64,000 nt of DNA from Pseudomonadota bacterium (GTDB lineage: Bacteria > Pseudomonadota > Gammaproteobacteria > Burkholderiales > JAKAFK01): NCBI GenBank assembly GCA_021788645.1, contig JAJYKK010000001.1:71743-135742 (forward strand), given 5' to 3'. Within the stretch, counting starts at the first letter, position 1, and each line of letters begins with the position of its first letter. This document shows, piece after piece, positions 22,095 to 48,958 of the stretch. The notes beneath the pieces were generated by a model, which was given only the letters and a program-made list of their open reading frames with translations, was not told where the DNA came from and made no database searches. The translations under genes and the position numbers were made by a program.

Positions 22095-23612
22095 ATGTGC
22101 GGCATATTGGGCGCAGTAGCCAAGGGACCGGTCAACCAGCTGCTGTACGACGGCTTGCAGGTTCTGCAGCATCGGGGGCAGGATGCGGCGGGGATCGTCA
22201 CGGTTGAAGGCGCTACATTCCACATGCACAAGGGCAATGGCCTTGTGCGGGACGTGTTTCGCACCCGCGACATGCGCAACCTCCTGGGCAACATGGGCAT
22301 CGCGCATGTCCGCTATCCCACGGCGGGCAACGCATTTTCCTCGGCCGAGGCGCAACCGTTCTACGTCAATTCTCCCTTCGGCATCGTGCTGGCCCACAAC
22401 GGCAACCTGACCAACGTCGACCAGCTCAAGGTGGAGCTTTTCCAGGAAGATTTGCGGCACGTCAACACGAATTCCGATTCGGAGGTGCTCCTCAACGTGC
22501 TGGCGCACGAATTGCAGGCCGCGGCCTCCAATCACAAGCTGGATGCGGCCGCAATTTTCGCCGCGGTGGCAGGGGTGCACCGGCGCTGCCGCGGCGCCTA
22601 TGCCGTGGTGGCGATGATTGCGGGCTATGGCCTGCTCGCGTTCCGGGATCCCTATGGGATACGCCCCTTGGTCATCGGGCGCGCGCACACGCCGCGCGGA
22701 GACGAATACTTGGTTGCCTCCGAAAGCGTGGCCTTGGATACCCTGGGTTTCGAACGCGTGCGGGACGTGGCGCCGGGTGAGGCGGTTCTCGTGGATGAGC
22801 GCGGCGGATTCTCGGCGGCGCCTTGCGCGACGCACGCCAGCGCGAATCCCTGCATCTTCGAGTATGTTTACCTGGCGCGCCCGGACTCGGTGATCGACGG
22901 CATATCGGTGTACGAGACGCGCCTGTTCATGGGGGAGAGCCTGGCGGACAAGATTGCCCGGATCATCTCGCCGTTGGACATCGACGTCGTGATACCCATC
23001 CCCGACACGAGTCGCCCCTCCGCGCTCCAGCTGGCCAACAAGCTCGGGCTGTCCTATCGCGAGGGCTTCATCAAGAACCGCTACATTGGACGGACTTTCA
23101 TCATGCCCGGCCAGGCCATGCGCAGGAAATCGGTGCGCCAGAAACTCAACGCCATCGGCATGGAGTTCAAAGGGCGCAACGTCTTGCTGGTGGACGACTC
23201 CATCGTGCGCGGGACCACCAGCCAGCAGATCGTGCAAATGGCCCGCGAGGCAGGGGCGCGCAAGGTCTATTTCGCCTCGGCGGCGCCGCCTGTGCGTTTC
23301 CCCAATGTTTATGGCATCGACATGCCCACGCGGCAGGAGCTTCTGGCCACCGGTCGCACGGACGATGAGATCGCCGCCGAGATCGGCGCGGACCGCGTGA
23401 TCTATCAGGATCTCTCGGCGTTGATTGCCGCCGTTCGCAGGGTCAATCCTGCCCTCACGTCCTTCGAGACCTCATGCTTCGACGGCCACTATATCACCGG
23501 TGACATCACGCCCGAATATCTGGCAAGGGTGGAAGCGCGGCGTTCGGATGCGGCGGCGTCAACGTCGGCCGCCACGCGCCAGCTGGATCTGAGTCTTACT
23601 TCGGCGGGCTAG
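22095..23612 (+). CDS. purF: Amidophosphoribosyltransferase
   Basis: MCGILGAV N-terminal nucleophile Cys and the PRPP motif [13 protein letters not shown]. Confidence 0.95.
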
Positions 23613-28783: not shown

Positions 28784-29404
28784 CGTTCAGGGGCCTCGAT
28801 GCCGCGTGGCGGCGGATGAACAACGGCGTGTGTCGACAACCAAGCCGCATGGGCAGCGGACGGGTCACTACCCAGTGGGCTCCCGGAGGCGTTGCGGAAG
28901 GACACGCGTTGCCAGGAGCTGGACGGTCCAGTGGCGACACCCCGGTCCCTGAAGCGCGTCGTTTCGGTCCCATCAAGCTGGGAAACGAAAGGGCGCCGGA
29001 AAAGACGGCACCGACATGATTTGAGCGCCTTCATCGGTACGCGCGTGAAACCGCCTCATTGATGGGGAGGAGGCAGGGCGCCGACCGCAAGGCGGTCGAT
29101 GCCCTTGGCCGGTGCCTACTCACGCTCTCCTTTTTCGGGTTGGCCACTGAATGATGGTTGCCGGTCTTTTCCGGCTGCCGGCCGAGTACGCCGCACGCCT
29201 CTTGCGCCTATGTCGCTTCCTGCGCCACAGCCGTGTACGACGGCTGAACCCTTCGGCGCTTGAGCGTTCACCCGCATGATCCCAGTCTTGCCGTGTCCGG
29301 AACCGAGGCGGCATCCCGGCGTAGGTCTGCGCGACCGGTCGCGACCCCGCTTGGCGCTTTAGCCTGCGCACATCGGTACCGCTGTTTACCTCAATCGCCG
29401 CCGT

Positions 29405-31255: not shown

Positions 31256-31324
31256 GGGACACTTGTCCGAGTCCTGGGCGTGCAGATCCCGCCCGGATCG
31301 CGGGCAGGGGCGCGGCGCCTCGCC

Positions 31325-34300
31325 TCAGAACGGTGGCTGCCGCTCCGACAGATGGGTCGCCAGATAGGTGATTGCCGGCGCCACCAGCGGGGGGTGGAGG
31401 GCATCCCGGAGAATTTCGTCACAGGCGTTCTCCATGCTGAACAACTCGATCAGGGCATCGGCTTGGGTGTCATCTTCAGGGTAGGAGACGGCGCCTTGCA
31501 CCCCCTCCCGGTACCCGTCCAGAAACGCCTCGGCCATTTGGTCTCGCCATTCCAGTGCATAAGGCTCGATGCGCGGCCGATCCTCGCTCCGCTCGGCGCT
31601 CAGGCGGGCCAGTGCCGCATGCGCGGTGCGGTCGAAGGAGCGCAGCATCGTGGCGACGTCGCGCAACGGGGAGTGCTTGCTGCGCCGGGCCGCCGGCGGC
31701 AGGCCCGGTTCCCCTTCGAAGCCGATGATCACGAAGTCGTTTTGGGTGACCAGGACTTTTCCGAGATGGAGATCTCCATGATAGCGGGTCTTCATGGGCC
31801 GCAATGCCGCCGGCAGGAGCCCCTTGATGCGCCTGCTCAGGGGTTTGTGCAGCCGGATCAGCTCGTCGGCGCCGTCCCGCGCCGGCGAGGGAAGATGTGC
31901 ACGCTGCCGTTTGAGTTCGCCGATGGCCTGGGCGAGTTTCTTGCCGACGGCGGCGACCCAGGCTCCGCGTTCTCGTGCGGCTACAGGCTCCGGGCTGAAC
32001 GCCGGATCTTCGAGATCCCGGCAAAAGGCCTTGTGCAGCGCCCCTACCCGCGAGCCCAGCGTCCGCATCAGCGCCCTTGCCGCCCCATGGGGGGGGGGCG
32101 GCGTGACCGGCTCCTGGTGTCCGAGCTTCGATTCAAGGAAGCGCTCGAGAGACTCGAGCGCATAATCCCAGGCGGTACCCTGATTTTCAATATAGGCATG
32201 CAGCAAGGCCAGCGCAATCGGAGCCCCGTCCGGCGGTTGGTATTGTGCGCTCCCCACGAACGGGGCGACGTGCAGGAATGCCGATTGGGCGGCAAGAAAT
32301 GCGCCGATCTCGATCTGCGGGTCGGGGCCTTCCTCAACTTGCCGCATCCCTTTCAAGAACAGGCGTTCCCCCAAGATCGCGGCGCGGTGCTCGCGGGCGC
32401 CGGATGGGCGGGTGACATTTCCGAGCCGGCCTTCAGCGAGGGTCTCGAAGGCCGGGGTGGAAGAAAAGCGCAGCGTTCCCTGGCCGAAGGGCGCGTCCAC
32501 GTTTCGCCCGATGGCGTCGACGAGCGCCGCGCAAAATGCGTCGTCGGCGAATGCATCGACCACCAGCCCGGTGCGCGCCTTTTGGCGCACGCGTGCAATG
32601 GCAAAGGCGGTGAGCGCCCGATGCGTGTCGTCGTCGCCATCGTCCCAGGACAGCGCCAGCGGCACGAAGTAGCTGCGGATGTCCCCTTCCGGTGCACGGG
32701 CGCGGACCAGGGTCAGGAACCAGTTGTGAGCGGGCGGGCCCCATTCCGCGGCGGCAACGAAGGCGCCGTCAGCCATCTGCTTGCCTGGCAGTCCGGACCA
32801 CGGTTGCTGGGACAGGAAGCTCGGCAAGACTTCTTTTTCCAGACGCAACGCCGTCTCGCGCTCCAGTTGCGTGCGCACGGCAGGCGCGCCTGCCTTCGGC
32901 GGCAAGAAAGTGCGCCAGCCGTCGAGCAGCACCAGCAGCGGCAGTTCGGGGGGCGCCACGGGCTCTTCCGGACGCTGGGCGAAGGGGGCATCGCTTAGCA
33001 ATTCGAACCAATAAAAGCCGTAACCGGGCAGCGTCAGCAGATAGGGCAATTCCCCGATGCGGGGAAAGGGCGTGCGTCCCATCAGTTCGACCGGAATACG
33101 TTGCTGGTAGGGCGCAAGATCGAGCTCGACGGGTTGTGCGGAATGGGCCAGGTTGGCGACGCACAGAATCACCTCGGTCTGATAGACACGCAAATAGGCG
33201 ATGATTTTGCGGTTCGCCGGATCAAGCATGATCAGGCTCCCTCTCCCGAAGGCTGCGTGCGCCTTGCGGACCGTGATGAGACGCGTCGTCCAATTGAGGA
33301 GCGAGGAGGGATTGCGCGCCTGGGCCTCCACGTTCAAAGCCTCATAGCCGTATACCGGGTCCATGATGGGCGGGAGATAGAGGCGAGCGGGATCGGCGCG
33401 CGAGAAACCCGCGTTGCGGTCCGGGCTCCACTGCATGGGCGTGCGTACCCCGTTGCGGTCGCCCAGATACACGTTATCCCCCATGCCGACCTCATCGCCG
33501 TAATAGACGATGGGGGATCCCGGCATCGACATGAGCAGGCTGTTGATGAGCTCGATCTTGCTGCGATTGTTGTCCATGAGCGGCGCAAGCCGGCGACGGA
33601 TGCCGAGATTGAGGCGGGCGCGTTCATCGGCGGCGTACATCTCGTACATGTAGTCGCGTTCCCTGTCGGTCACCATCTCCAGGGTGAGTTCGTCATGGTT
33701 GCGCAGGAAGATGGCCCACTGGCAATTTTCGGGGATATCGGGCGTCTGGCGCAGAATTTCCACGATCGGGTGCCGGTCCTCCTGCGCGACAGCCATGTAG
33801 ATGCGGGGCATCAGGGGGAAGTGATAGGCCATGTGGCATTCGTCGCCATCGCCGAAGTACTCGCGCACGTCTTCCGGCCACTGGTTGGCCTCCGCCAGGA
33901 ACATGCGGTTGCGATAATGCTTGTCGAGTTCCGCGCGCATGTACCGGATCACGCGATGGGTTTCCGGCAAGTTCTCGTTATTGCTGCCTTTGCGCACGCA
34001 CAAATACGGGACGGCATCGAGGCGCAGCCCGTCGACGCCGATGTCGAGCCAGAAGCGCATGACCCGCATCATGGCGCGCACGACGTGCGGGTTGTTGTGG
34101 TTGAGATCCGGTTGATGGGAGAAGAAGCGGTGCCAATAGTAGGCGCGCGCCACCGGGTCCCATGCCCAATTGGAGGCCTCGGTGTCCTTGAAGATGATTC
34201 TGGTCTCCGGGAACTGCGTGTCGGTGTCGCTCCAGACGTAATAGCTTCGTTTGGCCGATTTCGGGGGGGCCCGGCGCGCGGCCTGAAACCAGGGGTGCTG

Positions 34301-34627
34301 GTCGGAGGTGTGATTGACGACGAGTTCCGTGATGACCCTTAGCCCGCGGGCATGGGCTTGCCGGATGAAGCGGCGGAAATCTTCCAGGGTGCCGTAAGGG
34401 GGATAGACATCGCGATAGTCGGAGATGTCGTACCCATCATCGCGCATCGGCGAAGGGTAGAACGGAAGCAGCCACAGCGTATTGACGCCGAGGGTGCGAA
34501 TGTAGTCGAGCTTTTGTGTGAGTCCCCGAAAATCGCCGATTCCGTCGCCTGTGCTGTCGAAATAGGCCTTCACGTGCAGCTCATAGATGATCGCGTCTTT
34601 GTACCATAGCGGATCGTCTTCGATCAT
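31325..34627 (-). CDS. treS: Trehalose synthase fused to a maltokinase domain (TreS-Pep2/Mak)
   Basis: N-terminus WYKDAIIYELHVKAYFDS...VVNHTSDQHPWF...GLRLDAVPYL (GH13 TreS). The C-terminal ~450 aa carry the kinase motif YHGDLHLGKVLVTQNDFVIIGFEGEP. Confidence 0.9.
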   Translation of the reverse strand: MIEDDPLWYKDAIIYELHVKAYFDSTGDGIGDFRGLTQKLDYIRTLGVNTLWLLPFYPSPMRDDGYDISDYRDVYPPYGTLEDFRRFIRQAHARGLRVITELVVNHTSDQHPWFQAARRAPPKSAKRSYYVWSDTDTQFPETRIIFKDTEASNWAWDPVARAYYWHRFFSHQPDLNHNNPHVVRAMMRVMRFWLDIGVDGLRLDAVPYLCVRKGSNNENLPETHRVIRYMRAELDKHYRNRMFLAEANQWPEDVREYFGDGDECHMAYHFPLMPRIYMAVAQEDRHPIVEILRQTPDIPENCQWAIFLRNHDELTLEMVTDRERDYMYEMYAADERARLNLGIRRRLAPLMDNNRSKIELINSLLMSMPGSPIVYYGDEVGMGDNVYLGDRNGVRTPMQWSPDRNAGFSRADPARLYLPPIMDPVYGYEALNVEAQARNPSSLLNWTTRLITVRKAHAAFGRGSLIMLDPANRKIIAYLRVYQTEVILCVANLAHSAQPVELDLAPYQQRIPVELMGRTPFPRIGELPYLLTLPGYGFYWFELLSDAPFAQRPEEPVAPPELPLLVLLDGWRTFLPPKAGAPAVRTQLERETALRLEKEVLPSFLSQQPWSGLPGKQMADGAFVAAAEWGPPAHNWFLTLVRARAPEGDIRSYFVPLALSWDDGDDDTHRALTAFAIARVRQKARTGLVVDAFADDAFCAALVDAIGRNVDAPFGQGTLRFSSTPAFETLAEGRLGNVTRPSGAREHRAAILGERLFLKGMRQVEEGPDPQIEIGAFLAAQSAFLHVAPFVGSAQYQPPDGAPIALALLHAYIENQGTAWDYALESLERFLESKLGHQEPVTPPPPHGAARALMRTLGSRVGALHKAFCRDLEDPAFSPEPVAARERGAWVAAVGKKLAQAIGELKRQRAHLPSPARDGADELIRLHKPLSRRIKGLLPAALRPMKTRYHGDLHLGKVLVTQNDFVIIGFEGEPGLPPAARRSKHSPLRDVATMLRSFDRTAHAALARLSAERSEDRPRIEPYALEWRDQMAEAFLDGYREGVQGAVSYPEDDTQADALIELFSMENACDEILRDALHPPLVAPAITYLATHLSERQPPF

Positions 34628-36586: not shown

Positions 36587-39166
36587 TCACGCGTCCTTCG
36601 GAAGCAGCGCGCGCAATTCGTAAATCAGATCCAGCGCCGCGCGCGGCGTGAGCGAGTCGGGCTCGATCGCCTTGAGCCGTCGCGCCACGGCATCATCGGG
36701 AGCGGGGGGCGGGGCCGTTGCCTGAGCGGTGAACAAATCGCCTTGTCGGCTGGTCTCGATGCTTTGCTGCTCCAGTTGCACGAGACGGCGCCTGGCGGCC
36801 TGGATGACCGCAGGCGGCACGCCCGCCAGTGCGGCGACCTGCAAGCCATAGCTTTGGCTCGCCGGGCCTTCTTGCACGCTGTGCAGGAAGACGATGCGGT
36901 CGCGATGTTCGACGGCGTCGAGATGCACGTTGGCGACCGCCCGCAGTTCTTCGGCCAAGCGGGTCAATTCGAAGTAATGGGTGGCAAACAAGGCGAAAGC
37001 GCGATTGCGCTCGGCCAATGCCCGGGCGCACGCATACGCCAGCGCCAGCCCGTCGAAGGTGGAGGTTCCCCGGCCGATCTCGTCGAGGAGCACCAGACTC
37101 TTGTCCGTCGCATTGTGCAGGATGTTGGCGGTCTCGGTCATTTCGACCATGAAGGTTGAACGTCCACCCGCCAAGTCGTCGGATGCGCCGATGCGCGTGA
37201 AGATCTGGTCGATGGGGCCTACGCGCGCGGACTTTGCGGGAACATACGAGCCGCAGCAGGCGAGTAGCGTGATGAGCGCGGTTTGCCGCATGTAGGTCGA
37301 CTTGCCGCCCATGTTCGGGCCGGTGATGAGCAGCATCCGGCGGGCGCGGCCCAGTACCGTGTCATTGGCCACGAAGGTGTCGACCTGGGTCTCGACCACC
37401 GGATGACGGCCCTCGCGGATGTCGAGCACCGGCTCCTCGGCATATTCGGGGGCGACGAGTCCGAGCGTCTGCGCGCGCTCGGCGAGGCTTGCCAGTACAT
37501 CCGCCTCGGCGAGCGCCGCCGCGATGTCCTGGAGGCGCAGGACGTGGGGCGCGAGCAAGGCGAGCAGCGCCTCGTAGAGCTGCCGTTCGCGGGCGAGCGC
37601 CCGCTCGGCGGCCGACAAGGCCTTGTCCTCGAATGCCTTGAGCTCCGGGGTGATGAAGCGTTCGGCGTTTTTTAGGGTCTGGCGGCGCCGATAGTCGTCC
37701 GGCACTTTCTCGGCCTGGCTGCGCGGGACTTCAATGTAGAAGCCATGGACGCGGTTATATTCCACTTTGAGCGCCGCGATCCCGCTGCGGCCACGCTCGG
37801 CCGCCTCGAGGGAAAGGAGGAAGTCGCCGCAGTTCTCATGAATGGCGCGCAGCTCGTCGAGTTCGGCGTCGTACCCCTCGCGGATGACGCCCCCGTCCCG
37901 CAGCATGCTGTTCGGTTCCGGCTTCAGCGCACGTTCGAGCGCCTCGAGCAGCGCCTCGTCGCGCGTCAGGCGCAAGGACAATGCCTGGAGGCGCGTCGCG
38001 GGAAGCGGCGCGATCGTGTCCACCAGAGACGGCAAGGTCTTCAAGGTGTCGCGCAGGCCCGAAAGATCACGTGGACGTGCCGTGCCCAACGCGACTCGGG
38101 CCGTGATCCGCTCGACGTCGGCGCAGCCGCGCAGGACTTCATGAAGCGTGCGCCACGGAGGGCATGCGTCGGTTTGGGCACACAGGCCGTCGATGGCCTC
38201 GAGCCGGTCTTGCAGGGCCGCGCGGTCGGTCAGCGGGTGATGCAGCCAATGACGAAGGCAGCGGCTGCCCATGCTGGTCGCCGTGGTATCGAGCAGCGAG
38301 AGCAGGGTGGGCGAGGGCTCGCCGCGCAAGGTCTCGGAAATTTCCAGGTTGCGACGGGTGGCGCTGTCCATCGACACATAGGCGCCGGTCCGTTCCACGG
38401 CGAGCCCGCTGATGTGCACGAGGGCGGCGCGCTGGGTATGCTGGACATAGCCTATGAGGGCGCCGGCCGCGCAGGTCACGCTTCCTCCTTTGGCCACGCC
38501 GAAGCCGTCCAGGCTCAAGACCTTGAACTGCGTGCACAGCGCGTCATGGGTAGTATCCGGGTCGAATTGCCACAGGGCGAGGGGTTTCAGCGCGGACTTG
38601 AACGACGCAAGCCCCACGTGCTGAAAGCCTTCCGGAACGAGGAGCTCGGCGGGTCGGACGCGCTCCAGCTCGGAGGCGAGACGCGACGGTGAGGTCTCGA
38701 GCGCGCTGAAGCGTCCGCTGGCCAGGTTGAGCCAGGCGAGCCCGACCCGCTCCCCCGCCGGAAACAGGGCGGCCAGCAGGCTGTCGCGGCGATCCTCCAG
38801 GAGCCCCGCGTCGGTCAGGGTGCCCGGCGTGATGATGCGGGTGACTCGCCGTTCGACGGGTCCCTTCGAGAGAGCGGGGTCCCCGATCTGCTCGCAGATG
38901 GCGACCGACTTGCCCAACCGCAGCAGACGGGCTAGATATTGCTCGCAGGCATGGTGCGGGACGCCCGCCATCTTGATGGGCTGCCCGCCAGAGGCCCCCC
39001 GCTGCGTGAGCGTGAGATCGAGGAGCCGTGCCGCCTCTTCGGCGTCCCGGTAGAAGAGTTCGTAGAAATCCCCCATGCGGTAGAACACCAGCATGTCGGG
39101 ATGTTCAGCCTTGATGCGCAAATACTGCTGCATCATCGGCGTGTGCTGAGGGATGGCTTGATCCAC
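36587..39166 (-). CDS. mutS: DNA mismatch repair protein MutS
   Basis: [31 protein letters not shown]...[15 protein letters not shown]...[12 protein letters not shown]. Confidence 0.95.
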
Positions 39167-39206
39167 GCTCGCTAGGATTTTTCGGGGTGTGCGGGATCAT
39201 CATTCT

Positions 39207-39232
39207 AACATATTGTTATTACACAATATGTT
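39207..39232. promoter_or_regulatory. Perfect 10-bp inverted repeat (AACATATTGT-N6-ACAATATGTT) in the AT-rich mutS/sulfotransferase divergent region
   Basis: Seen directly in the sequence, 41 bp upstream of the mutS start codon. Operator-like architecture. No known motif assigned. Confidence 0.4.
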
Positions 39233-39368
39233 CACTCGTGACAAAGGTCTGCAAGGTCTTGAATGACTTGAGCAATCGGCCCCGGCCCCCTATGATGATT
39301 CCCGTAAACCCAATGATGGCGAACGCCAGCGCGCCCGCCGCCGACGGATAGGCAAGCTTCGTGCACAT
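39219..39368 (-). CDS. Candidate 49-aa small membrane protein
   Basis: MCTKLAYPSAAGALAFAIIGFTGIIIGGRGRLLKSF... has one TM span followed by a basic tail. GC3 is about 73% by hand count. No clear RBS. Overlaps the sulfotransferase start head-to-head. Confidence 0.2.
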   Translation of the reverse strand: MCTKLAYPSAAGALAFAIIGFTGIIIGGRGRLLKSFKTLQTFVTSEHIV

Positions 39369-40104
39369 GAACGCGTCCAGCCCTCTTTCGAGAATTTTCC
39401 TGCTGAGCCATATGCGGGCCTTCACCAGCCTGGCGGGGCATATTCTCGGTTCGCATCCCCGGATCAACGGCTATTATGAGATGCATATCAGCTACGCGGA
39501 TGCCCACGCGCTGGACAGGCAGGTCGAGCGGTTTCTGGAAAGCCATGCGTTCAAGGCAAACAGCCGGTATCTTTTCGACAAGCTGCTCCACAACGATTAC
39601 GTGGTGAGCCCCGAGCGGCTCAGCCCCGTCAAAGTGAAGATACTGATTGCCTTGATGCGGCCGGAGCACACTCTCAAGAGCATCGTGCATCTGTTTGCGC
39701 AAAAGGAGGTTGAGGACCCTTATGCCTCACCCATTGAGGCGGCAAACTACTACATCGCGCGTGTCCAGGCGCTCGCCGACTTCAGCCGGACCGCCCGGTG
39801 CCCCTATTGCTATTATGATGCCGAGCTGTTTCAACGCGCCCCGGAGAAGCTGCTTCGCGCGCTCTCGGACTGGCTGGAGCTGGATTCGCCACTGAGCGAA
39901 CGGTATCGGGTGTTCGATCATACGGGAAAATCGCGCATGGGGGACTCGTCGGAACGCATTCATCGTGGCGCCATCGATAGGATGCCCACTGATTATGCCC
40001 ATATCGCCATTCCGCGCGACGTGCTGCAAAGGGCGACTGAGGCGTATGAGGAATGCCGTCGGCAGATTGCACGGCATGCCGCCGATTCGCTGGTTCAGGA
40101 CTAG
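39367..40104 (+). CDS. Sulfotransferase-family protein (NodH-like size and architecture)
   Basis: About 245 aa. The N-terminal RIFLLSHMRAFTSLAGHILGSHPRINGYYEMH occupies the position of the PAPS 5'-phosphosulfate-binding loop of NodH-type sulfotransferases. Assigned by pattern only. Start is ATG 39367 or GTG 39361. Confidence 0.6.
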   Translation: MNASSPLSRIFLLSHMRAFTSLAGHILGSHPRINGYYEMHISYADAHALDRQVERFLESHAFKANSRYLFDKLLHNDYVVSPERLSPVKVKILIALMRPEHTLKSIVHLFAQKEVEDPYASPIEAANYYIARVQALADFSRTARCPYCYYDAELFQRAPEKLLRALSDWLELDSPLSERYRVFDHTGKSRMGDSSERIHRGAIDRMPTDYAHIAIPRDVLQRATEAYEECRRQIARHAADSLVQD

Positions 40105-40211
40105 AAGACGGGCGAAGGCAGCCACCATGCCGCCCCCCGCGCGCCTGGCTGACGGTATCGGGCCCGCGTGGCCAAGACATTTCGGGAGGGGCTTTCGCAA
40201 TCAACCATCTC

Positions 40212-41678
40212 ATGCAGTTCCCCCATCCTTTCTTCTCGTCGCGCCCGGCGTGGAAGTGGTTCATCCTGATCAACGTGCTCGTCGGGGCTACGATGTCCGC
40301 CCTGGACGTCAGCATCGTGAACGTGGCCATGCCGACCATCAGGACCGATTTTGGGGCGTCGATGGTGACCATAGAATGGGTGGCGATGGCGTACATGCTG
40401 ACCTTGACGGTCATGTTGCCGTTTTTTGGCAGGCTCGCGGACGTGATAGGCCGCGCGAAGCTCTATAACCTGGGTTTCGTCGTTTTCACCGTGGGCTCCG
40501 GTCTCTGCGGCTTGGCCCGCTCCGCCCTGTTCCTCATCCTTGCTCGCATGCTGCAGGCGATGGGCGCGGGCCTTTTGCAGGCGAACTCCGTCGCGCTCAT
40601 CACGCAGGCCTTTCCGAGCCGCGAGCTCGGCAGGGCGATCGGCATTCAAGGGGCTGTCCAGGCGATGGCGATGGCGGTGGGACCGTTCATCGGCGGGATC
40701 CTGATAGGCGCGATCGGCTGGCGCTGGATATTTTTTGTCAACCTCCCCGTTGGCATTGTCGGGACGGTGGTCGGCCTGTACGTCCTGCCCCGGCACGTCG
40801 GGACGGGCGAGAAGCCGAGGATCGACTATCTGGGCCTGATATGCTTCGCCGCGGGCCTGGCGGCCCTCGTGCTGGCAGTCAACACCCTCGAGAGGAGCGG
40901 CTGGAGGGCTCCGCTCGTCCTCGGTGGCCTTGTGGCCGCCTGCGTGTTCCTGCCGGCGTTCGTCTTGAGGGAACTCAAGACGGGATTCCCCATGATCGAC
41001 CTGAAGCTCTTCAGGAACTGGACGTTCACGACGGGAAACGTGACCGGCATGCTGTCCTATTATGTGATGTTCGCCGTGCTCTTCTTGATGCCGTTCTATG
41101 TCGAGGATGTGCTCCGCTTCGGGCCCGCGCTTACCGGTGCCCTCCTCACCCCGGTACCGCTTGCGATGGCCGTCGCGGCTCCGCTGGCGGGGCACATCTC
41201 CGACCGGCACGGCGCGCGGATCGTGACGACGGCCGGGATGGCCGTGGCTTCACTCGCGTGCTTCGCCTTGATGTTGCTGAGCACGCACGGCCGCCTTCCG
41301 GTCCTGGCGGGCGAACTGACGCTGCTCGGCATTGGCATGGGCCTTTTCACGCCACCCAACAACAGCGCCATCATGTGGGCTGCGCCGAAGGACAAGTTGG
41401 GCCTGGCCGGCGGGCTTCTCAACATGATGCGGTCCTTGGGGCTCATTTTCGGCGTCGACATTTCCGGGTTGGTCTTCACGCATGTGGCACATGGCTATCT
41501 GGCGAGTAAGGGGATCGCGGCCGTCCGGCACGTCTCCCGGAACACGGCCATTCCCCTGCCCGTCAGGGATGGCGCGTTCATGCACGGCTTCATGTCGGTC
41601 ATGGGATCGCTGCTGGCGCTCACGGTCCTCTCGACCCTCCTATCGATCATGCGCAGGCAATCACCCGCGCGCGACTAG
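40212..41678 (+). CDS. MFS transporter, DHA2 (EmrB/QacA, 14-TMS) family
   Basis: WKWFILINVLVGATMSALDVSIVNVAMPTIRTDFGAS...GRLADVIGRAKLY...LARMLQAMGAG, with about 14 hydrophobic spans. Confidence 0.9.
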   Translation: MQFPHPFFSSRPAWKWFILINVLVGATMSALDVSIVNVAMPTIRTDFGASMVTIEWVAMAYMLTLTVMLPFFGRLADVIGRAKLYNLGFVVFTVGSGLCGLARSALFLILARMLQAMGAGLLQANSVALITQAFPSRELGRAIGIQGAVQAMAMAVGPFIGGILIGAIGWRWIFFVNLPVGIVGTVVGLYVLPRHVGTGEKPRIDYLGLICFAAGLAALVLAVNTLERSGWRAPLVLGGLVAACVFLPAFVLRELKTGFPMIDLKLFRNWTFTTGNVTGMLSYYVMFAVLFLMPFYVEDVLRFGPALTGALLTPVPLAMAVAAPLAGHISDRHGARIVTTAGMAVASLACFALMLLSTHGRLPVLAGELTLLGIGMGLFTPPNNSAIMWAAPKDKLGLAGGLLNMMRSLGLIFGVDISGLVFTHVAHGYLASKGIAAVRHVSRNTAIPLPVRDGAFMHGFMSVMGSLLALTVLSTLLSIMRRQSPARD

Positions 41679-43480
41679 AACAGGCTGTCCCAGGCATCCC
41701 GCTCGGCCCGATAATGCGCCAATGCCTCGATGATCTGTCGTTTGCGCTCCGCGCGATGCTCGGCGGACTCGATCTTGCGCCACGCAACCGAATGCTCGCC
41801 GAAGTTGCGGTCGATGTTTTCGATGAAGGCGTGGACCTGCTCGAGCGCGTCGGACAGCTCCGCCCGGCGTAGCCACCAGTGGCCCGCGTTGAACACCAGC
41901 GCACGCAATTGCCGGCTCTTCGCGACGATCGCGTCGTGCTTTTGGCGATAGAGCGCCAGCAGGTCGCTTTCTTTCGCGGCGATGATCGCCTCGATGGTCT
42001 CCTGGGCGAAAGGCCGAGTCACGTCCGCTCGCTTGACCAGCTCTTCGGCCGAGAACAACATGAGGTCGCCGAAGAACTGACGCTCGAACTCGTCGGACAG
42101 ATCGATGTGTTTGCGTTCTCCATCCCGTTCGACGCCGGGACGGAAATTTCCGCCCAATCCCTCCTCGGTCGAGCGGCGATGGAGATTGGGCATGTTGAAA
42201 GAGGCGAACCGTGCGCCGATTTCCGCGGCAATCAACCGCCCGGCGGTCGGTCCGGACATGCGCAGTCTCAGGTGACCGAAAGGAATGATGTATTTCAGTC
42301 CGGCGTAGTTGACGACGTAATTGCCCGGATAAACTGTCCGAGCCGGCGTGAGCCGTGCAAAACCGCTGCCATAGGAGAACCAGGTCTTGCGCGTCAGGTG
42401 CTCGCCGAAGAAGAAGGCATCCAGCCTGTGCGCGAACGCCGTTAGGCAGTCGGCATGGTCGTGGCGGCCGGATAGCCTGCAGGCGTAGGGAAATGCCGCC
42501 GGTTGCTGGGCAAAGCCGAAGAGCCCCGCCAAGTCGTGATAGGCGGCATCGCCTGGAAGCGGGCCCTGCGCCCCGTGAAACCGGCAAGCGTCATGGCCGC
42601 CCAAAGTCGACAGCCGCTCAAGGAAGGCGATGACATCATCAAGGAAATTCGCCGCCATCACCGCGGGGGACACCGGGGGATCCCCTACCAGCTTACCGGT
42701 GAGCATCAGCGTGCCGGTGGTGCGGAAGATCCGGTCGATGACGTGGAAGTAATTGAGTGCATAGACGATTTCCTCGCCGGTGTCGGTTCGCCGGTTCACG
42801 CAGAAATGCTGGTCGCTGTCGACGAGGTAATACAGCGTCTTGGCCTTGTCTTCCGTCAACTGCAGGAACTTGAGGTAGCTCAAGTTGCGATTGGCGGCTT
42901 GTCCCTTGCGATAAAATCTGTCCCGCGGCTGGCGGGTGAGTATCCTGCCGAGGCGCTCGCGCTGGCCCTGGGGCAGCGCGTGCAGAAGCTCATACTGCTC
43001 GTCCAGCCCGAAATGAACGACCTGCAAGCCTTTCTTCCGATACTCGTCTACCAGCTCTCGGTGCCGGCGGATATGGTGTTCGTCGCGGCTGTCCTCGGCG
43101 ACGACCACCTTGATCTTTTCCCATGCCCCGGATGCGTGGCCGCCATAGTCATACAGCGCGCACAGCTGATAGATGCTTTCCAGGCAGGCGCGCAAGTGGG
43201 GTGGCCGGTCCGCCACCGGGATGCCGAGGATGAAATGGTGGCGCTGATCATCGCCCCGCCGGGACACCAGCGCCTCCTGCTCGCGGAAGAGGGCCTGATA
43301 GTCCGCGAGCAGCGCCGCGAAGTCGGCTCCCGAAGCCCACATTGCTTTTTCCAGCCAAGGGTAGCATTGCTCGTAGCGCTCGATGAGCCCATCGAGCCCG
43401 TTCGGATCGGCGAGCGCCGGGAGGGCGGCTTGGTGGCGCGCGAGGCATCGCGCGAGCTGCGTTGTCGCGGGATCAGGCAT
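41675..43480 (-). CDS. 601-aa protein of unknown function with a GT-A-like (nucleotide-diphospho-sugar transferase) core
   Basis: HHFILGIPVADRPPHLRACLESI (beta1 of the GT2 type), KIKVVVAEDSRDE, KGQAANRN, and YLVDSDQ (DxD-like), plus a helical C-terminal ~150 aa. The ATG lies 6 nt after the stop of the ThDP gene. That it is a gene is solid; its function is not. Confidence 0.75.
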   Translation of the reverse strand: MPDPATTQLARCLARHQAALPALADPNGLDGLIERYEQCYPWLEKAMWASGADFAALLADYQALFREQEALVSRRGDDQRHHFILGIPVADRPPHLRACLESIYQLCALYDYGGHASGAWEKIKVVVAEDSRDEHHIRRHRELVDEYRKKGLQVVHFGLDEQYELLHALPQGQRERLGRILTRQPRDRFYRKGQAANRNLSYLKFLQLTEDKAKTLYYLVDSDQHFCVNRRTDTGEEIVYALNYFHVIDRIFRTTGTLMLTGKLVGDPPVSPAVMAANFLDDVIAFLERLSTLGGHDACRFHGAQGPLPGDAAYHDLAGLFGFAQQPAAFPYACRLSGRHDHADCLTAFAHRLDAFFFGEHLTRKTWFSYGSGFARLTPARTVYPGNYVVNYAGLKYIIPFGHLRLRMSGPTAGRLIAAEIGARFASFNMPNLHRRSTEEGLGGNFRPGVERDGERKHIDLSDEFERQFFGDLMLFSAEELVKRADVTRPFAQETIEAIIAAKESDLLALYRQKHDAIVAKSRQLRALVFNAGHWWLRRAELSDALEQVHAFIENIDRNFGEHSVAWRKIESAEHRAERKRQIIEALAHYRAERDAWDSLF

Positions 43481-43486
43481 GCAAGA

Positions 43487-45154
43487 CTAACGCCGTGAGG
43501 AATAATTCGGATAGGCATCCTGATCGAGCATGATCTCGATGAGATTGATGCCTTGACGGAAATCCATCGTCGCGAGCTTCGCCACCTGCGTCCCGTCTTC
43601 CAGACGGCAGTGCCTGATGCCGAACGATTGCGCCAGCAGCGCGTAATCGGGATTGGTGAAATCGCAGTCCATGAAGCGGTCGTGATAGAGATGATGCTGG
43701 TTCTTGCGAATCAGCCCCATGGTCCGGTTGTTGAACAGGATGACATTGAGCGAGATGCGGTGATTGACCGCCGTCATGAGTTCCATCGCACACATCTGGA
43801 ACCCGCCGTCGCCGATCGCGGCAAATACCGGCATGTCGAGTTCGCAGGCGGCGCCAATGGCCGCCGGGATGGCGTGGCCCAGCGACGAGATGCCGGTATT
43901 GGGGTAATAGCGGTCCTTGGCGGACACCCGGTAAAAATTCTGCGCAAAGACGATGTTGTCGTCGAACAGGGCGAGGCCGTCCGGAAAATGCTGTTCGAGC
44001 CACGCGTAAAAGGCGCGCACATGGTCGAACCGGTGGTCGAAGATCGCCTCGCCCGCCGCATCGGTCCGGGCCCGTGTGGCGGCGATGAAGGCGCCGATGT
44101 CTGCCGGTTCTTTCGCGGGCACCTCCTGGGCCGCGAGGGCGGCGTCGAGCGCCTGCAAGTAGGCGCCAAGGTCGGCGTGCACCGCGAGGTCCGCGCGGAA
44201 TGACTTCCCCAGCTGCTGCGCACAATGGTCCACCTGGATGAGCTTCTTGCCCGCCAACAGCCGCCTGTCCCAGGCATAGCTCGTTCTCTCGCCGAAGGCC
44301 GCACCCAGCACCAGCACCAAGTCCGCCTTCTCTTCCAGGTAACGCATGGCGTAACCGCAGGACGTGACGCCGAGGCTGCCGAGCGCCCGCGCGGATCGTT
44401 CGTCGATCGCACCCTTGGCCTTGAGGGTGCTGGCGACCGGGATGTCGAGGCGTTCGCTCACGCGGCGCAGCGAGGCTTGCGCATCCGCCCGGACGCAGCC
44501 GTGGCCGGCGATCATCAACGGGCGTTTCGCTGCCTGAAGCAGCGCCACGCTCGCATCGATGCCGCGCGCAGGGGGCGCGTGCTCGTCAACGGGGCGCGTG
44601 AAGCTGATCTGCTCAAGGATGCCGGCATCCACGCTCTCCTGCTGCACATTGAAGGGAATGCTCAACACGACTGGTCCCGGCGCCCTGCAAAGGAGGTGTT
44701 GGGCGGCTTGGTTCAGGACCGTGGGCAGGTAATCCGTGCGTTCGATCAATTTGTGGTAGCGGGTGATGCCTGCGAACAAGGCGACCTGATCGATGCTGCC
44801 TCCCTCGCCGGAGCTCTCCTGCAGGCCGCCCTTGCCGAAAAAATGGGTGGAGGTCTCGCCCGTGATGACCAGCACCGGCTGCCTCTCCGCATACGCGTTG
44901 GCGATTCCGGTCACCAGATTGGTCGCGCCGGGACCAGCCGTGGTGATGCACGCCGCTATTCTTCCCGAGGCGCGCGCGAACCCGCCAGCCATGAAGGCCG
45001 CCCCCTGCTCGTGCTTGACGAGCAAAGTCGTGATCCTGGACTCGTACAGCCTGTCGTACACCGGAAGAATATGGGCGCCGGGCATGCCGAAGACATGGGT
45101 GATCCCCAGGCGCTCCATGAACCTGACGATCAATTCGCTGACGGTTGTTTGCAA
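43487..45154 (-). CDS. Thiamine-diphosphate-dependent enzyme, acetolactate synthase large-subunit-like
   Basis: LGITHVFGMPGAHILPVYD...ACITTAGPGATNLVTGIANAYAERQPVLVITGE...AIGDGGFQMCAMELMTA (ThDP motif GDG..N). TTG start. No small-subunit gene nearby. Confidence 0.9.
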   Translation of the reverse strand: MQTTVSELIVRFMERLGITHVFGMPGAHILPVYDRLYESRITTLLVKHEQGAAFMAGGFARASGRIAACITTAGPGATNLVTGIANAYAERQPVLVITGETSTHFFGKGGLQESSGEGGSIDQVALFAGITRYHKLIERTDYLPTVLNQAAQHLLCRAPGPVVLSIPFNVQQESVDAGILEQISFTRPVDEHAPPARGIDASVALLQAAKRPLMIAGHGCVRADAQASLRRVSERLDIPVASTLKAKGAIDERSARALGSLGVTSCGYAMRYLEEKADLVLVLGAAFGERTSYAWDRRLLAGKKLIQVDHCAQQLGKSFRADLAVHADLGAYLQALDAALAAQEVPAKEPADIGAFIAATRARTDAAGEAIFDHRFDHVRAFYAWLEQHFPDGLALFDDNIVFAQNFYRVSAKDRYYPNTGISSLGHAIPAAIGAACELDMPVFAAIGDGGFQMCAMELMTAVNHRISLNVILFNNRTMGLIRKNQHHLYHDRFMDCDFTNPDYALLAQSFGIRHCRLEDGTQVAKLATMDFRQGINLIEIMLDQDAYPNYSSRR

Positions 45155-45956
45155 GTGACCGCATCCCTTTCAAATGCGCCGGATGTGCCGGAAGCACCCC
45201 GCTGAGGACAGCCATCGAAAAGGATTATTTTTAACACAACCAGCGGCGGGCCACAACGACGCCCACGCGACGGCCTGGCTCCTGCGCGGGGCGAGCGTGC
45301 GGCTCACGTGGCCTCAACGGCCGAACGCTGGCCGGTGCGCATGCCCGCTGCGAGCGGCGATGAGCCGGCCGGCCCGCCAGGGATCGAAGGCCGGTGTCCG
45401 CAGCACATGCCATGCCGACGACAACGGCGACCAAAGCCATGCCCGAACGCTTGCCGAGCCGGGAGTCAAGGCATCCGGCATGGCCGTCGCTCCGGGGCAA
45501 GGGAGAACACCTCGGGCGGCGAGACGCGGCCGTATGACGGGAGCGCCGCGATGTTGACCGTTCGCTTGACGAAAGCGGGCCGCCGCCTCAACGGCGAGAA
45601 CAAGCGGCGGAATCGACCACGCGCACCCCATGCGGACAGGCTACCCGCGAGGCGGCACGAGGCGCACGCAGCGCAGTGCCCCACGCGGGTCGTCTTGCGG
45701 AAGTGGCTGGACCGGTTCCCGCCCGGCGTGCTGCCGTACCTGGGCGAGGGCGCCCGGTGGCGATCGTCTAACGGGGGATGGCTTGTGGCGAGAAACCCGG
45801 CACCATTTCTCGCGGTCGCCCCGGGGACGAAACCCTTCAACCGATCGGCCGAGATGCGCCGCGGCTTTCGTGGGCTGCGGCGCTACATTATACTGCTGTC
45901 ATGCGAGTGCCGTTGCGCACACAACGCGATTGGGATGGAAGGGAGGCCGATACGCC

Positions 45957-48164
45957 ATGGTTCTCGAACGCCTGCTCGATCTGTTGCCGATCGGAGCCGT
46001 CGTTGTATCCCGCGACGGCACGGTCCGGCATGCCAACCGCCATGTCCTGTCCCTGTTCGGATACCAGCCTTCCGAGCTGATCGGCCACCCGCTCGGGATC
46101 TTGCTGCCGGAGGAAGTGCGCGTCAAGCACGAGCAATTCGTGCGCGCATGGTTCACGCGTCCCGTAGGGCGCGGGATGCACACGGGGCGGGTGTTCGTCG
46201 CGCGCCGCAAGAACGGCGCGCGCTTTCCGGCGGACATTTCGCTGACGAGAGTCGCCGATGGCGGCGAAGAATACGGGCTCGCCTGCCTGATCGATGTCAC
46301 GACGCTGCACACCCTGGGGCGGGTGCAGCGCGCCTTGGCGTTTTTGAGCGGCAGCAACCGCATCCTGTTGCGATCGACAGGCGGCGACGTCATTTTGCAG
46401 GATGTTTGCCGCCTGGCCACCGAGACGGGAGGCTACCGACTCGCGTGGATCGGGGAAGCGCAGGCGCTTGAGGGCAAGCCGGTGCGCGTCTTGGCCCGAG
46501 CCGGTCAGGCCGTCGACTACATGGAAGCCCTCTCGGTCAGCTGGGCGGAGGATCCGCTGGGGTATGGCCCGACCGGGAGGGCGATTGTGCATGCGCGTCC
46601 CATCGTGTGCCGCTTCATCCGATCGGACCCGGCCTTTGCCCCCTGGCGCGAGCGGGCGCTGGCGCACGGCATCGAGTCGGCCGCGGCGCTGCCGCTGAAG
46701 GTCGACGGTCGGGTCTTCGGCGCGCTTTCCCTTTATGCGGATGTGCCCGATGCCTTTGACGGCGATGAGCTAAGGCTTCTGGTCGAGGTTGCGGATGACG
46801 TATCCTTCGGCGTCGAAACCTTGCGGCTGCGCGAAGCGCACCGACGGGCCGAAGCACAATTGCGCCGATCCGCCCGGGTCGATGCGGTCACCCAGGTCGC
46901 CAACCGAGCGGGCTTGTCCGCATTCCTGGAAGAGGAGATTCACCGCGGTAGGGGCGGTGCGCTCATTTTCGTGAACCTGCGCCGCTTCAAGGAGATCAAC
47001 CATACGCAGGGCTATGCCATGGGGGATGCCGTGCTCAAGGCCTCGGCGCACCGGCTGGCCGGCATCTTGACTCCGGGGGAGCAGCTTGCGCGAATCGGTG
47101 GCAGCGAGTTCGCGCTCGCAGTCCCCGAGGGTGACGAGGCCGCCGCGCGTCGGGCGGCGGAGCGCATCCGCAACGCGCTCGCCGAAAAGCTGCTGGTCGA
47201 TGGACTTTCCGTCTCGCTGGGGGTCAAGGTCGGCGTTGCCCGCTACCCGGCGGGGCGCGCGACGCCCGACGAGGTCTATGCCGATGCCGGGCTTGCCGCC
47301 CAGTTTGCCGATCCCGAGTCGGGCGGCATTCGGTTTTATTCGCCGGCGATGAGTTCCGCGTTCGCCCGGCGCCTGGATATCGCCCGGCGCCTGCAGGCGG
47401 CGTTGCGGGAAGAGGCGCTGGCGCTCTTTTACCAGCCGAAGGTTGACATCGCCTCGGGCCGGCTCGTCGGTGCCGAGGCGCTGCTTCGCTGGAACGATGC
47501 CGTGCTGGGTGCGGTCCCCCCGGATCAGTTCATCCCCGTCGCGGAGGAGCGCGGCCTGATGCCAGAGCTGGGCAACTGGGTGATCGCCAGCGCCTGCCGG
47601 CAATTGCTGTCCTGGCAAGACGCGGGCCTGCGATTCCCGGGCCGGGTGAGCGTCAATGTTTCCGTCGCGCAGTTCAACGTGCCGGATTTTGCCGCGACGG
47701 CGGCTCGAATCGTCGAGGCGGCCGGTGCCTCGGCGGCGGACCTGGAATTGGAGCTTACCGAAAGTCTCTTCGTCGGGGACGGCCCGGCGACCATCGAGGC
47801 GATGAAGACGTTGACGGCCAAGGGGTTTGCACTGGCTATCGATGATTTTGGCACCGGCTTTTCCTCGCTCGCCTATCTGTCGCGTCTGCCGGCCGGCACC
47901 CTGAAAATCGACGTGAGCTTTGTCCGCAACATGCTGGAAAGCCCCAACGACCACGTGGTCGTACGAGCCATCATCGGGATGGCGCGAAGCCTGGGGATGG
48001 ATCTGGTGGCGGAAGGCGTGGAGAGCGCCGCGCATGCGCAGGCACTGCTCGATCTGGGCTGTCCGACGGCGCAGGGCTACCACTACGGGCACCCGGAGCC
48101 GGCGGAGCCGTTTGCGCGACGCTGGCTTGCCGGAGGCGGCAGGTTCCCCGCGGCGGAGCGCTAG
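45957..48164 (+). CDS. PAS-GAF-GGDEF-EAL c-di-GMP signalling protein (GGDEF motif degenerate: GGSEF)
   Basis: RBS GGAAGGGAGG at 45938-45947. PAS ([23 protein letters not shown]), [14 protein letters not shown], and EAL ([32 protein letters not shown]). Confidence 0.9.
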
Positions 48165-48958
48165 CGGCGCAGGGCGTCCGTCAAATGGGGTGCGAGCATC
48201 TGGAGCAGTTGGACGAAGATTTTCGGATTGCCGGCCACGACGTTGCCGCGGTCGAGAAAATTCTCGTTGCCGACGAAGTCGCCGACGAGCCCCCCCGCCT
48301 CCTGGATGAGAAGCGCGCCGGCCGCGATGTCCCAAGGTTTGAGGGCGATCTCGAAGAACCCGTCGAGGCGGCCGGCGGCGACGTAGGCCAGGTCGAGGGC
48401 GGCGGAACCGGGGCGACGCACGCCCGAGGTCTTTTGCACCGCGTCGCGGAACATCGCGAGGTAGGGGTCGAGATGGGAAAAGTCGCGGAACGGGAATCCC
48501 GTGCCGATCAGGGAGTCCTTGAGCTTGATCCGCTTGGAGACCCGCAGCCGTCGATCGTTGAGAAAGGCGCCTTGCCCCTTGGAGGCCGTGAAAAGGTCGT
48601 TGCGGGTAGGATCGTAGACGACCGCGTGGGTGAGGGCCTGTTTGTGGAGGAGGGCGATCGAGACGGCGTATTGCGGAAAACCGTGCAAAAAGTTGGTCGT
48701 GCCGTCTAGGGGATCAATGATCCATTGGTACTCCGAATCCCCCTGCTCCCCTGATTCTTCTGCTAAAATCGCATGATTTGGATAGGCGCCCAGCAGCGTT
48801 TCGATGATGGACTGTTCGGCGGCCTGGTCGACTTCGCTGACGAAATCGTTTTCGCTTTTGTGCTTGACCGTGATCAGATCGAGGTCGAGGGAGGCCCGGT
48901 TGATGAGGGATCCGGCGCGACGGGCGGCCTTGACCGCAATGGTGAGCATGGGATGCAT
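48161..48958 (-). CDS. suhB: Inositol monophosphatase family protein SuhB
   Basis: [16 protein letters not shown]...EESG...[12 protein letters not shown]...[17 protein letters not shown]. Confidence 0.9.

Follow-up and report, generated by a model that had tools for sequence, protein, structure and literature searches.

A probable three-gene module of sulfur-oxidizing Beta- and Gammaproteobacteria built on a predicted GT-A-fold family

The 64,000-nucleotide (nt) stretch of DNA analyzed here, below called the window, is part of contig JAJYKK010000001.1 of a Pseudomonadota bacterium (GenBank assembly GCA_021788645.1, positions 71,743 to 135,742 of the forward strand). Between positions 39167 and 45154 it contains four genes, which encode a sulfotransferase-like protein, a major facilitator superfamily (MFS) protein, a 601-amino-acid (601-aa) protein and a thiamine diphosphate (ThDP) enzyme. 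Sequence comparison with related genomes makes it highly probable that the functional unit in this cluster is a vertically inherited three-gene module of sulfur-oxidizing Beta- and Gammaproteobacteria, which consists of the ThDP–601-aa operon and a convergent sulfotransferase-like gene. This trio is apparently a small, sulfur-oxidizer-specific biosynthetic module centered on an unrecognized family similar to glycosyltransferases of the GT-A fold. Each of the three proteins falls into a known superfamily (ThDP/AHAS-like, GT-A and sulfotransferase-like, respectively), and none of them scores as a member of a curated family.

Conservation of the gene trio

All four open reading frames (ORFs) are present in the window in the order and orientation given by a first-pass annotation of this DNA, which was made from the sequence alone. 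The ThDP gene (43487-45154, minus strand, 555 aa) is followed by the 601-aa gene (41675-43480, minus strand) after a gap of 6 nt, as that annotation had also described. The sulfotransferase-like ORF (39361/39367-40104, plus strand, 247/245 aa) points toward them, and its homologs begin at the sequence MNASS, which corresponds to position 39367.

For loci of the window type (beta-type), one genome per GTDB species was scanned with the family alignment, and at least 560 species were found to contain relatives. From these, the 80 best loci, with at least 64% identity, were kept, and the counts for this type were made over these loci (L009-L088) using tblastn of the window proteins. Another 85 loci (gamma-type), whose 601-aa homologs are ∼40%–45% identical to the window protein, were collected from a metagenome scan and contig look-ups. 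The data showed that the sulfotransferase-like gene was located downstream from and convergent to the 601-aa gene in 67 of the 70 beta-type loci with enough DNA, and that the distance between the two was at most 500 nt in 46 of those loci. The ThDP gene was immediately upstream of the 601-aa gene in 35 of 69 beta-type loci, which belong to Sulfuricella-like genomes and several Gammaproteobacteria, while most Thiobacillus loci were without it. Among the gamma-type loci the ThDP gene was immediately upstream on the same strand in 59 of 60, the single exception being Candidatus (Ca.) Venteria ishoeyi. The pairing of the 601-aa family with the ThDP enzyme thus extends to marine symbionts and large sulfur bacteria, in which identity has fallen to ∼40%. 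The three proteins are 55%–89% identical across Sulfuricellaceae and Thiobacillaceae, and the type strain of Thiobacillus denitrificans, DSM 12475, has the 601-aa and sulfotransferase-like genes (L040). The three core proteins contain no hydrophobic segment, which shows that the products of all three genes are soluble.

De novo clustering of neighboring genes in the beta-type loci showed that only lexA was otherwise recurrent; it directly adjoins the 601-aa gene in Thiobacillus genomes (15 loci). The other flanks vary: Sulfuricella T08 has katG there, Thiobacillus has toxin–antitoxin and restriction genes, and the nearest relative has a prophage. The ancestral layout is a ThDP gene followed by the 601-aa gene, with the sulfotransferase-like gene converging on them. 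The description of the cluster as two short operons facing each other is correct for the window itself, but the arrangement is lineage-specific and does not represent the ancestral layout. The neighborhood comparison across genomes, which the first-pass annotation had suggested, supported the co-localization of the ThDP, 601-aa and sulfotransferase-like genes, while the pairing of the sulfotransferase-like gene with the MFS gene was not conserved.

Alternatively, the genes could be functionally unrelated neighbors that have stayed adjacent through inherited synteny alone. Related metagenome-assembled genomes are the source of many of the loci, so that the counts are not phylogenetically independent; moreover, about half of the beta-type loci have no ThDP gene, and the window-type sulfotransferase-like gene is missing from the gamma-type loci. 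On the other hand, the ThDP–601-aa adjacency, with gaps of 6–20 nt, persists at ∼40% protein identity while other neighbors change, and the sulfotransferase-like gene keeps its convergent orientation to the 601-aa gene also where katG, toxin–antitoxin, MFS or other genes have been inserted between the two. These observations make mere synteny a very improbable explanation.

The gamma-type loci contain several additional genes. A 177-aa protein is encoded on the same strand directly downstream from the 601-aa gene in 41–47 of them (L094-L173, e.g., L109:4864-5397). Its motifs NTGRCGSTTF and YVHLxRDx6SFxxR resemble the 5′-phosphosulfate-binding (PSB) and 3′-phosphate-binding (3′-PB) loops, which bind 3′-phosphoadenosine 5′-phosphosulfate (PAPS). 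Pfam gave no family match for the 177-aa family, with faint similarity to Sulfotransfer_3 in two of 16 members and to Sulfotransfer_4 in one of 16, and a profile search of the PDB gave only spurious gp41 matches. An hhalign comparison gave no support for homology of this protein to the sulfotransferase-like protein of the window, and the 177-aa protein is kept only as a motif-based lead. A convergent Methyltransf_24 gene is present in 31 gamma-type loci (e.g., L113:8303-8920), a PaaK/CapK-like adenylating enzyme is encoded directly downstream in 17 (e.g., L153:3957-5261), and a CxxCxxCC protein is encoded in 19. The Methyltransf_24 and PaaK/CapK-like genes suggest that the pathway in the gamma clade is a larger one with further tailoring steps.

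The 601-aa protein family

The 601-aa protein had no match in Pfam or NCBIfam, and a profile search of the PDB with its family gave nothing meaningful, the one match to an azoreductase (E 0.004) being spurious. A homolog search of 5.8 billion proteins returned 1584 matches, of which the top 120 are 69%–84% identical to the 601-aa protein and are also without a Pfam domain. The named close homologs come from Sulfuricella, Sulfurimicrobium, Thiobacillus and related Betaproteobacteria, and they are annotated as "hypothetical." The family is 64%–84% conserved across Thiobacillus, Sulfuricella and related genera, and it is small: when 1.84 billion representatives at 50% identity were scanned exhaustively with HMMER, only 293 clusters were found. 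The second, gamma clade was found using a profile of distant members, and its named members come from sulfur-oxidizing Gammaproteobacteria, which are the endosymbiont of Escarpia spicata, Ca. Thiodiazotropha and Ca. Venteria ishoeyi. Judging from the source names, the whole family looks confined to sulfur oxidizers (Thiobacillus, Sulfuricella, Chromatiales and symbionts).

The structure of the 601-aa protein was modeled with AlphaFold2 (AF2) using an alignment of 75 sequences, which resulted in a model with pLDDT of 89 and pTM of 0.90. The model consists of N-terminal helices (residues 1–75), a GT-A-like α/β core (∼80–460) and a C-terminal helical bundle (462–600). When this model was compared with the PDB using Foldseek, nearly all of the top 49 matches were GT-A enzymes. 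The best match was MtdL (PDB 7xpu), with an E value of 3e-4, and the others included Chlorella hyaluronan synthase, MpgS (2wvm), mannosylglycerate synthase, PcManGT, XXYLT1 and LH3. The residues invariant in the alignments of the family are IPVADRP, D130, D221-S-D223, DPPVSP, H361, R364, R381, R407-M-x-G-P and four cysteines. The DSD motif (221–223), which is invariant in all 75 sequences, directly follows the strand 215–220 of the model, so that the predicted structure shows both a Rossmann-like α/β/α fold and a DxD motif at the end of a core β-strand, as is characteristic of the GT-A superfamily. The GT-A-like core that had been proposed for this protein was therefore borne out at the level of fold and motif.

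Weak matches to the Pfam family Glycos_transf_2 were observed for 12 of 46 family members, with the best E value of 9e-4, while the window protein had no match at all to this family (GT2), whether at its gathering threshold or below it. Two family members weakly matched DUF6271. The family has four invariant cysteines as well as several histidines that are invariant or nearly so (the Cys and His residues concerned are C99, C107, C299, H302, C334, H340 and C345). Some of these residues are located in the lower-confidence 300–345 loop of the model, and they may form a structural metal site. Overall, the modeling data indicate that the 601-aa proteins are a previously unrecognized family of predicted GT-A fold, which is a member of no curated family.

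The ThDP enzyme

The ThDP enzyme matched the Pfam domains PF02776, PF00205 and PF02775 (TPP_enzyme_N, M and C) far above their cut-offs, with E values from 1e-30 to 1e-38, and its translation contains the motifs HEQGA and GDGGF...NN. The presence of the Pyr, middle and PP domains, together with the ThDP motif, places it in the superfamily of enzymes related to POX and acetohydroxyacid synthase (AHAS). However, it scored below every NCBIfam equivalog cut-off, including TIGR00118 (326 bits vs. 538). The nearest solved structures were those of BbmA (282 bits) and E. coli AHAS I, and the enzyme is 54%–58% identical to its counterparts in distant loci. The earlier description of an AHAS-like enzyme with neither a small subunit nor other ilv genes is consistent with these data, as no ilvN/ilvH small-subunit gene adjoins the ThDP gene either in the window or in related loci. 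A role as a true ilv gene for biosynthetic acetolactate synthase was ruled out by the sub-cut-off scores and by the gene context. The ThDP enzyme is probably a 2-oxoacid decarboxylase or carboligase.

The sulfotransferase-like protein

The sulfotransferase-like protein has 1062 homologs, the closest of which are 68%–87% identical to it, and UniRef names one of them "sulfotransferase family protein." The window protein scored 17.5 bits against the Pfam family Sulfotransfer_3, which is below the gathering score of 27, and a search of the PDB by sequence found no solved homolog. The same Pfam family was matched, below the threshold but with E values of at most 1, by 42 of 43 homologs (best E 3.3e-6). 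The AF2 model of this protein had low confidence (pLDDT 63.6); nevertheless, the top 18 Foldseek matches of this model were all sulfotransferases, with E values from 3e-5 to 9e-3, including TPST1/2, the sulfotransferase domains of olefin synthase and CurM, and SULTs. At the N-terminus a β-strand RIFLLS is followed by the sequence HMRAFTS, which was aligned to the PRSGTT sequence of the 5′-PSB loop; the Arg and Thr/Ser residues of this loop are kept, while Pro and Gly are lost. Within this PSB-like loop (SHMRAFTS), M18, R19 and A20 are invariant, and S16, H17 and T22 are nearly so. In the 3′-PB region S107 is invariant, but the position expected to be Arg (R100) is Glu, Gln or Asp in most homologs. 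A conserved loop R192-K193-G194-D195-S196-S197 (RKGDSS) might substitute for the 3′-PB Arg. Overall, the sulfotransferase-like character of the 245-aa protein is only moderately supported, with PAPS as its putative donor.

The similarity to tyrosylprotein sulfotransferases could also suggest a protein-modifying system, in which a TPST-like enzyme would sulfate tyrosine, while the GT-A enzyme would glycosylate a protein or peptide. Tyrosylprotein sulfotransferases are indeed the top Foldseek matches of the sulfotransferase-like model, and several GT-A matches of the 601-aa model act on proteins (LH3, ColGalT1, NleB and XXYLT1). However, confidence in the sulfotransferase model is low, the trio has no conserved gene for a small peptide or other target beside it, and the ThDP enzyme would be left without an obvious role, which makes protein modification quite improbable.

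The MFS gene and the origin of the cluster

The MFS gene is located at 40212-41678 on the plus strand (488 aa, public gene calls); when read as the longest ORF it begins at 40053, in overlap with the sulfotransferase-like gene. Its product scored above the TIGR00711 cut-off (281 bits vs. 230), matched MFS_1 at 1e-57, and showed 13 clear peaks over its 488 aa in a crude hydropathy scan, in agreement with its earlier description as a 14-segment pump of the DHA2 subfamily. The gene was present only in the contigs of this organism itself (L001-L004), and none of the 165 beta- and gamma-type loci from other organisms contained it. In the nearest relative, whose 601-aa and sulfotransferase-like proteins are 84% and 87% identical to those of the window, the same spot is occupied by a 112-aa C-terminal MFS fragment, which corresponds to residues 376–487 (72% identical) and still overlaps the 601-aa stop codon (L007:11848-12183, also in L008 and L009). 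This remnant suggests that the pump was gained by an ancestor common to both lineages, one of which is now losing it. Hence, the MFS gene is a lineage-specific insertion between the sulfotransferase-like and 601-aa genes, and a passenger rather than a dedicated exporter; in annotation it should not be read as a member of the pathway, as had been assumed before.

The composition of the cluster was compared with that of the window, which has a GC content of 0.647. Of the ∼40 window ORFs, the sulfotransferase-like gene is the one with the lowest GC (0.585 vs. a mean of 0.644, SD 0.027), which agrees with the by-eye impression that this end of the cluster was lower in GC. However, its GC at third codon positions (GC3) is 0.722, which is inside the window range of 0.743 ± 0.062, and its low GC is due to codon positions 1 and 2. 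The MFS, 601-aa and ThDP genes are ordinary in both measures (GC 0.627–0.641, GC3 0.79–0.84). The native GC3 of all four genes means that their composition gives no sign of recent transfer, and no integrase, transposase or tRNA gene was found at the cluster borders among the ORFs scanned.

These data bear on the explanation that the four genes form one horizontally acquired pathway, the sulfated product of which is exported by the DHA2 MFS pump. Such an island would be consistent with the contiguity of the genes, with the co-directional position of the MFS gene 107 nt downstream from the sulfotransferase-like gene, and with the low GC of the latter. In disagreement with it, the MFS gene is missing from all other loci and is decayed in the sister lineage, GC3 is native in all four genes, and the trio is inherited vertically across genera. 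The right flank suhB-trmJ-cysE-iscR-iscS... is common to the window and the nearest relative, and the trio is located beside the same suhB/isc genes in a Thiobacillus genome, where lexA is inserted. A horizontally acquired island was therefore rejected on the basis of GC3 and of the conservation in relatives, and the four-gene island with an exported product, which we consider a very unlikely explanation, is largely refuted.

The AT-rich region between mutS and the sulfotransferase-like gene does contain the perfect palindrome that had been noticed there, AACATATTGT-N6-ACAATATGTT (39207-39232). A near-identical palindrome, ACATATTGTTATTAAACAATATGT, is present in the sister species (L007-L009) at the same distance, ∼150 nt upstream of the sulfotransferase-like gene, where its neighbor is a prophage instead of mutS; it was not found in more distant loci. 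The fact that the palindrome travels with the upstream region of the sulfotransferase-like gene is consistent with a promoter or operator rather than an insertion scar. Hence, the palindrome fits a place in the regulatory region of this gene, as a candidate operator.

Links to sulfur oxidation and the proposed pathway

Several related loci connect the trio to activated sulfate. In Ca. Venteria ishoeyi (L091:9349-11815) an adenosine 5′-phosphosulfate (APS) kinase gene (PF01583) is located 13 nt upstream of the 601-aa homolog, at the position taken by the ThDP gene in the other gamma-type loci. The aprA or aprB genes of dissimilatory APS reductase are located within 10 kb of the ThDP–601-aa pair in 19 loci and in at least four arrangements, in which orientations and distances differ (e.g., L159:3144-5651, L086:3690-6193, L011:2643-5165 and L145:15994-18481); these loci include the beta-type loci L010, L011 and L086. 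The proximity of sulfotransferase-like proteins, APS kinase and aprBA suggests that activated sulfate is used in these bacteria beyond energy conservation and assimilation. The APS kinase of T. denitrificans is reportedly active, and the work of Gay, Segel and Fisher in 2009 is said to have left open what consumes its PAPS.

The predicted folds could be combined into a three-step pathway. In the first step the AHAS-like ThDP enzyme would decarboxylate or carboligate a 2-oxoacid, giving a small hydroxy-carbonyl or hydroxy-acid, or it would branch a keto-sugar. In the second step the 601-aa enzyme would bind a nucleotide-activated donor via its DSD–metal site, and would couple or rearrange a sugar on a small substrate, which is probably anionic because many Arg, Lys and His residues of the family are invariant. 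In the third step a sulfate group would be transferred from PAPS by the sulfotransferase-like protein, to give a sulfated metabolite that is derived from a sugar and located in the cytoplasm. The APS-kinase and aprBA associations suggest that dissimilatory sulfur oxidation, through its APS pool, could supply the sulfate donor. We propose tentatively, and as slightly less than an even chance, that the pathway of the trio makes a metabolite of this kind. The more specific proposal, in which the sulfur-oxidizer-specific trio diverts APS/PAPS into an undescribed sulfated sugar-derived metabolite and the GT-A family may itself use a nucleotide-phosphosulfate, is doubtful, but deserves some weight.

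A different arrangement of the same chemistry is that the ThDP and 601-aa enzymes together provide an unusual sugar donor, sulfated at a later stage, for the synthesis of a glycan. This could involve a two-carbon branching of a nucleoside diphosphate (NDP)-ketosugar of the YerE type, followed by an MtdL-like Mn-dependent NDP-pyranose mutase or self-glycosylation reaction. AHAS-like ThDP enzymes such as YerE are able to branch NDP-sugars. This arrangement is consistent with MtdL, which has similar domains and binds Mn2+ through DXD and His, being the best structural match of the 601-aa protein, with the DUF6271 matches of two family members, and with the Methyltransf_24 and PaaK/CapK-like genes of the gamma-type loci, which are typical partners in sugar tailoring. 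On the other hand, no NDP-sugar dehydratase, nucleotidyltransferase, polymerase, flippase or membrane glycosyltransferase is recurrent nearby, the TM-score to MtdL is just 0.53, and the DDD motif of GT75 is DSD in the 601-aa protein. Nucleotide-sugar tailoring is thus rather unlikely.

The association with sulfur oxidation could also be explained if the GT-A-fold protein itself bound APS or PAPS and acted in sulfate or sulfite metabolism instead of glycosylation. APS and PAPS are nucleotide-phosphosulfates, which resemble NDP-sugars, and the many invariant basic residues of the 601-aa family, its seeming confinement to sulfur oxidizers, the APS kinase at the operon position in Ca. Venteria ishoeyi, the nearby aprBA genes, and the sulfotransferase-like partners in both clades could all be seen in this light. 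However, neither APS nor PAPS is known as a substrate of any GT-A-fold enzyme, and both the DSD motif and the overall fold agree fully with the binding of ordinary NDP-sugars. In addition, the proximity of aprBA is partly inherited synteny. Direct handling of APS or PAPS, in which glycosylation would have no part, is therefore quite improbable.

Returning to the reading of the trio as a sulfated-metabolite module, several points weigh against it, in addition to the relatedness of many of the loci. Most Thiobacillus loci are without an adjacent ThDP gene, which implies that this enzyme is dispensable there or encoded elsewhere, no gamma-type locus has the window-type sulfotransferase-like gene, and the comparison of the 177-aa family with the window sulfotransferase-like family using hhalign gave a probability of 0.1%. 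The GT-A matches of the modeled 601-aa protein are weak (best E 3e-4, TM-score 0.53 on the target), and the best of them, MtdL, is a mutase and self-glycosylating enzyme rather than a classical transferase. The sulfotransferase model is poor (pLDDT 64), and the usual 3′-phosphate-binding Arg is not conserved in the family. Finally, the chemistry of the trio is inferred from folds and is not shown.

The first-pass annotation had read the cluster as a compact pathway for a sulfated, exported product, and had recognized in it no characterized pathway. The three-enzyme core remains, with a sulfated sugar-related product still as the best guess, while the exporter does not. No characterized pathway matches the trio, and the literature searched contained nothing on a set of ThDP enzyme, glycosyltransferase and sulfotransferase in sulfur oxidizers, nor on the locus tags SCD_n0237x, SCT_243x and SKTS_0890. 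What is new here is the 601-aa family, which has no match in Pfam, in NCBIfam or, by sequence, in the PDB. Its conservation in a biogeochemically important guild of chemolithoautotrophs suggests a real, unrecognized piece of their physiology. The question is testable in a cultured organism, as T. denitrificans DSM 12475 carries the genes for the 601-aa and sulfotransferase-like proteins.

Flanking genes and other features of the window

The flanks of the cluster agree with those described before, as Pfam and NCBIfam confirmed MutS on the left (36587-39166, minus strand) and, on the right, a PAS-GAF-GGDEF-EAL protein of cyclic di-GMP signaling (45630-48164, plus strand) and SuhB (48161-48958, minus strand). 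The mutS gene adjoins the cluster only in this organism. The divergent intergenic region 5′ of the ThDP–601-aa operon (45155-45629) has a GC content of 0.72. The start of the GGDEF-EAL protein is ambiguous, as the longest ORF gives 844 aa, while the later start in public gene calls gives 735 aa; the stretch between the ThDP and GGDEF-EAL genes (45155-45960) is unusually long and GC-rich (0.72). An ORF in this region (45174-45557) had no family match. A search of positions 38800-46300 against Rfam found no riboswitch or other RNA at E values of at most 1, and the signals in promoter and terminator scans were not above the shuffled expectation.

Two further gene sets were observed elsewhere in the window. 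At positions 1511-9402 there is an SOS mutagenesis cassette, which consists of lexA, a 217-aa ORF without a family match, an ImuB-like Y-family polymerase and a DnaE2-like error-prone polymerase. At positions 23609-34627 on the minus strand there is a trehalose/maltooligosaccharide gene set, which includes a 1724-aa fusion of a GH77 4-α-glucanotransferase with an α-amylase-family domain, a TreZ-like 616-aa protein (CBM48, α-amylase and DUF3459) and a 1100-aa TreS-like protein.

Comparison with known systems

The three-domain ThDP architecture of the window enzyme is shared with AHAS (IlvB), glyoxylate carboligase, BbmA and 5-guanidino-2-oxopentanoate decarboxylase. The catalytic-Glu and GDG...NN motifs are also common to these AHAS-like carboligases and decarboxylases and the window enzyme, and the similarity corresponds to 280–330 bits. 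Unlike these families, the window enzyme scores below the equivalog level, has no small-subunit or ilv genes adjoining it, and has a fixed partner in the 601-aa protein.

The low-confidence model of the sulfotransferase-like protein gives fold-level matches to PAPS-dependent enzymes of the Sulfotransfer_3, TPST and CurM-ST type, with which NodH-like bacterial sulfotransferases are also compared here, and the protein has an N-terminal strand–loop–helix in which Arg-x-x-Thr-Ser resembles the 5′-PSB loop. It differs from the PAPS sulfotransferases in its score below the Pfam gathering threshold, in the replacement of the PSB Gly (MRAFTS vs. PRSGTT) and in the variable 3′-PB Arg.

Among the GT-A enzymes, mannosyl-3-phosphoglycerate synthase of GT55 (2wvm) and mannosylglycerate synthase of GT78 (2bo4) matched the 601-aa model with Foldseek probabilities of 0.99–1.0. 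These are retaining enzymes for small anionic acceptors, which, like the 601-aa protein, are soluble and cytoplasmic and have a DxD metal site, and the many conserved basic residues of the 601-aa protein would suit an acidic acceptor of this kind. The likeness is at the level of fold only (TM-score ≤0.45), as the 601-aa protein has no Pfam or NCBIfam membership and has extra N- and C-terminal helical domains, and the known GT55 and GT78 enzymes have no ThDP or sulfotransferase partners.

The closest structural match, MtdL (PDB 7xpu), is an NDP-pyranose mutase of GT75 with a GT-A domain, a novel core and a C-terminal helix domain, in which Mn2+ is held by DXD and His (PMC9937993). GT75 is marked by a DDD motif, a conserved self-glycosylated Arg and a Mn-binding His. 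The domain order of MtdL is similar to that of the 601-aa model (GT-A, extra core and C-terminal helical domain), and its acidic DxD-type motif and conserved metal-binding His may have counterparts in the DSD motif and a conserved His of the 601-aa protein. The two proteins differ in length (601 aa vs. ∼375 aa) and in the motif itself (DSD, not DDD), have no sequence-level similarity (11% identity in the structural match), and align with TM-scores of 0.34 on the query and 0.53 on the target. Unlike GT75, the 601-aa family appears to be restricted to sulfur oxidizers, and it is paired with a ThDP enzyme.

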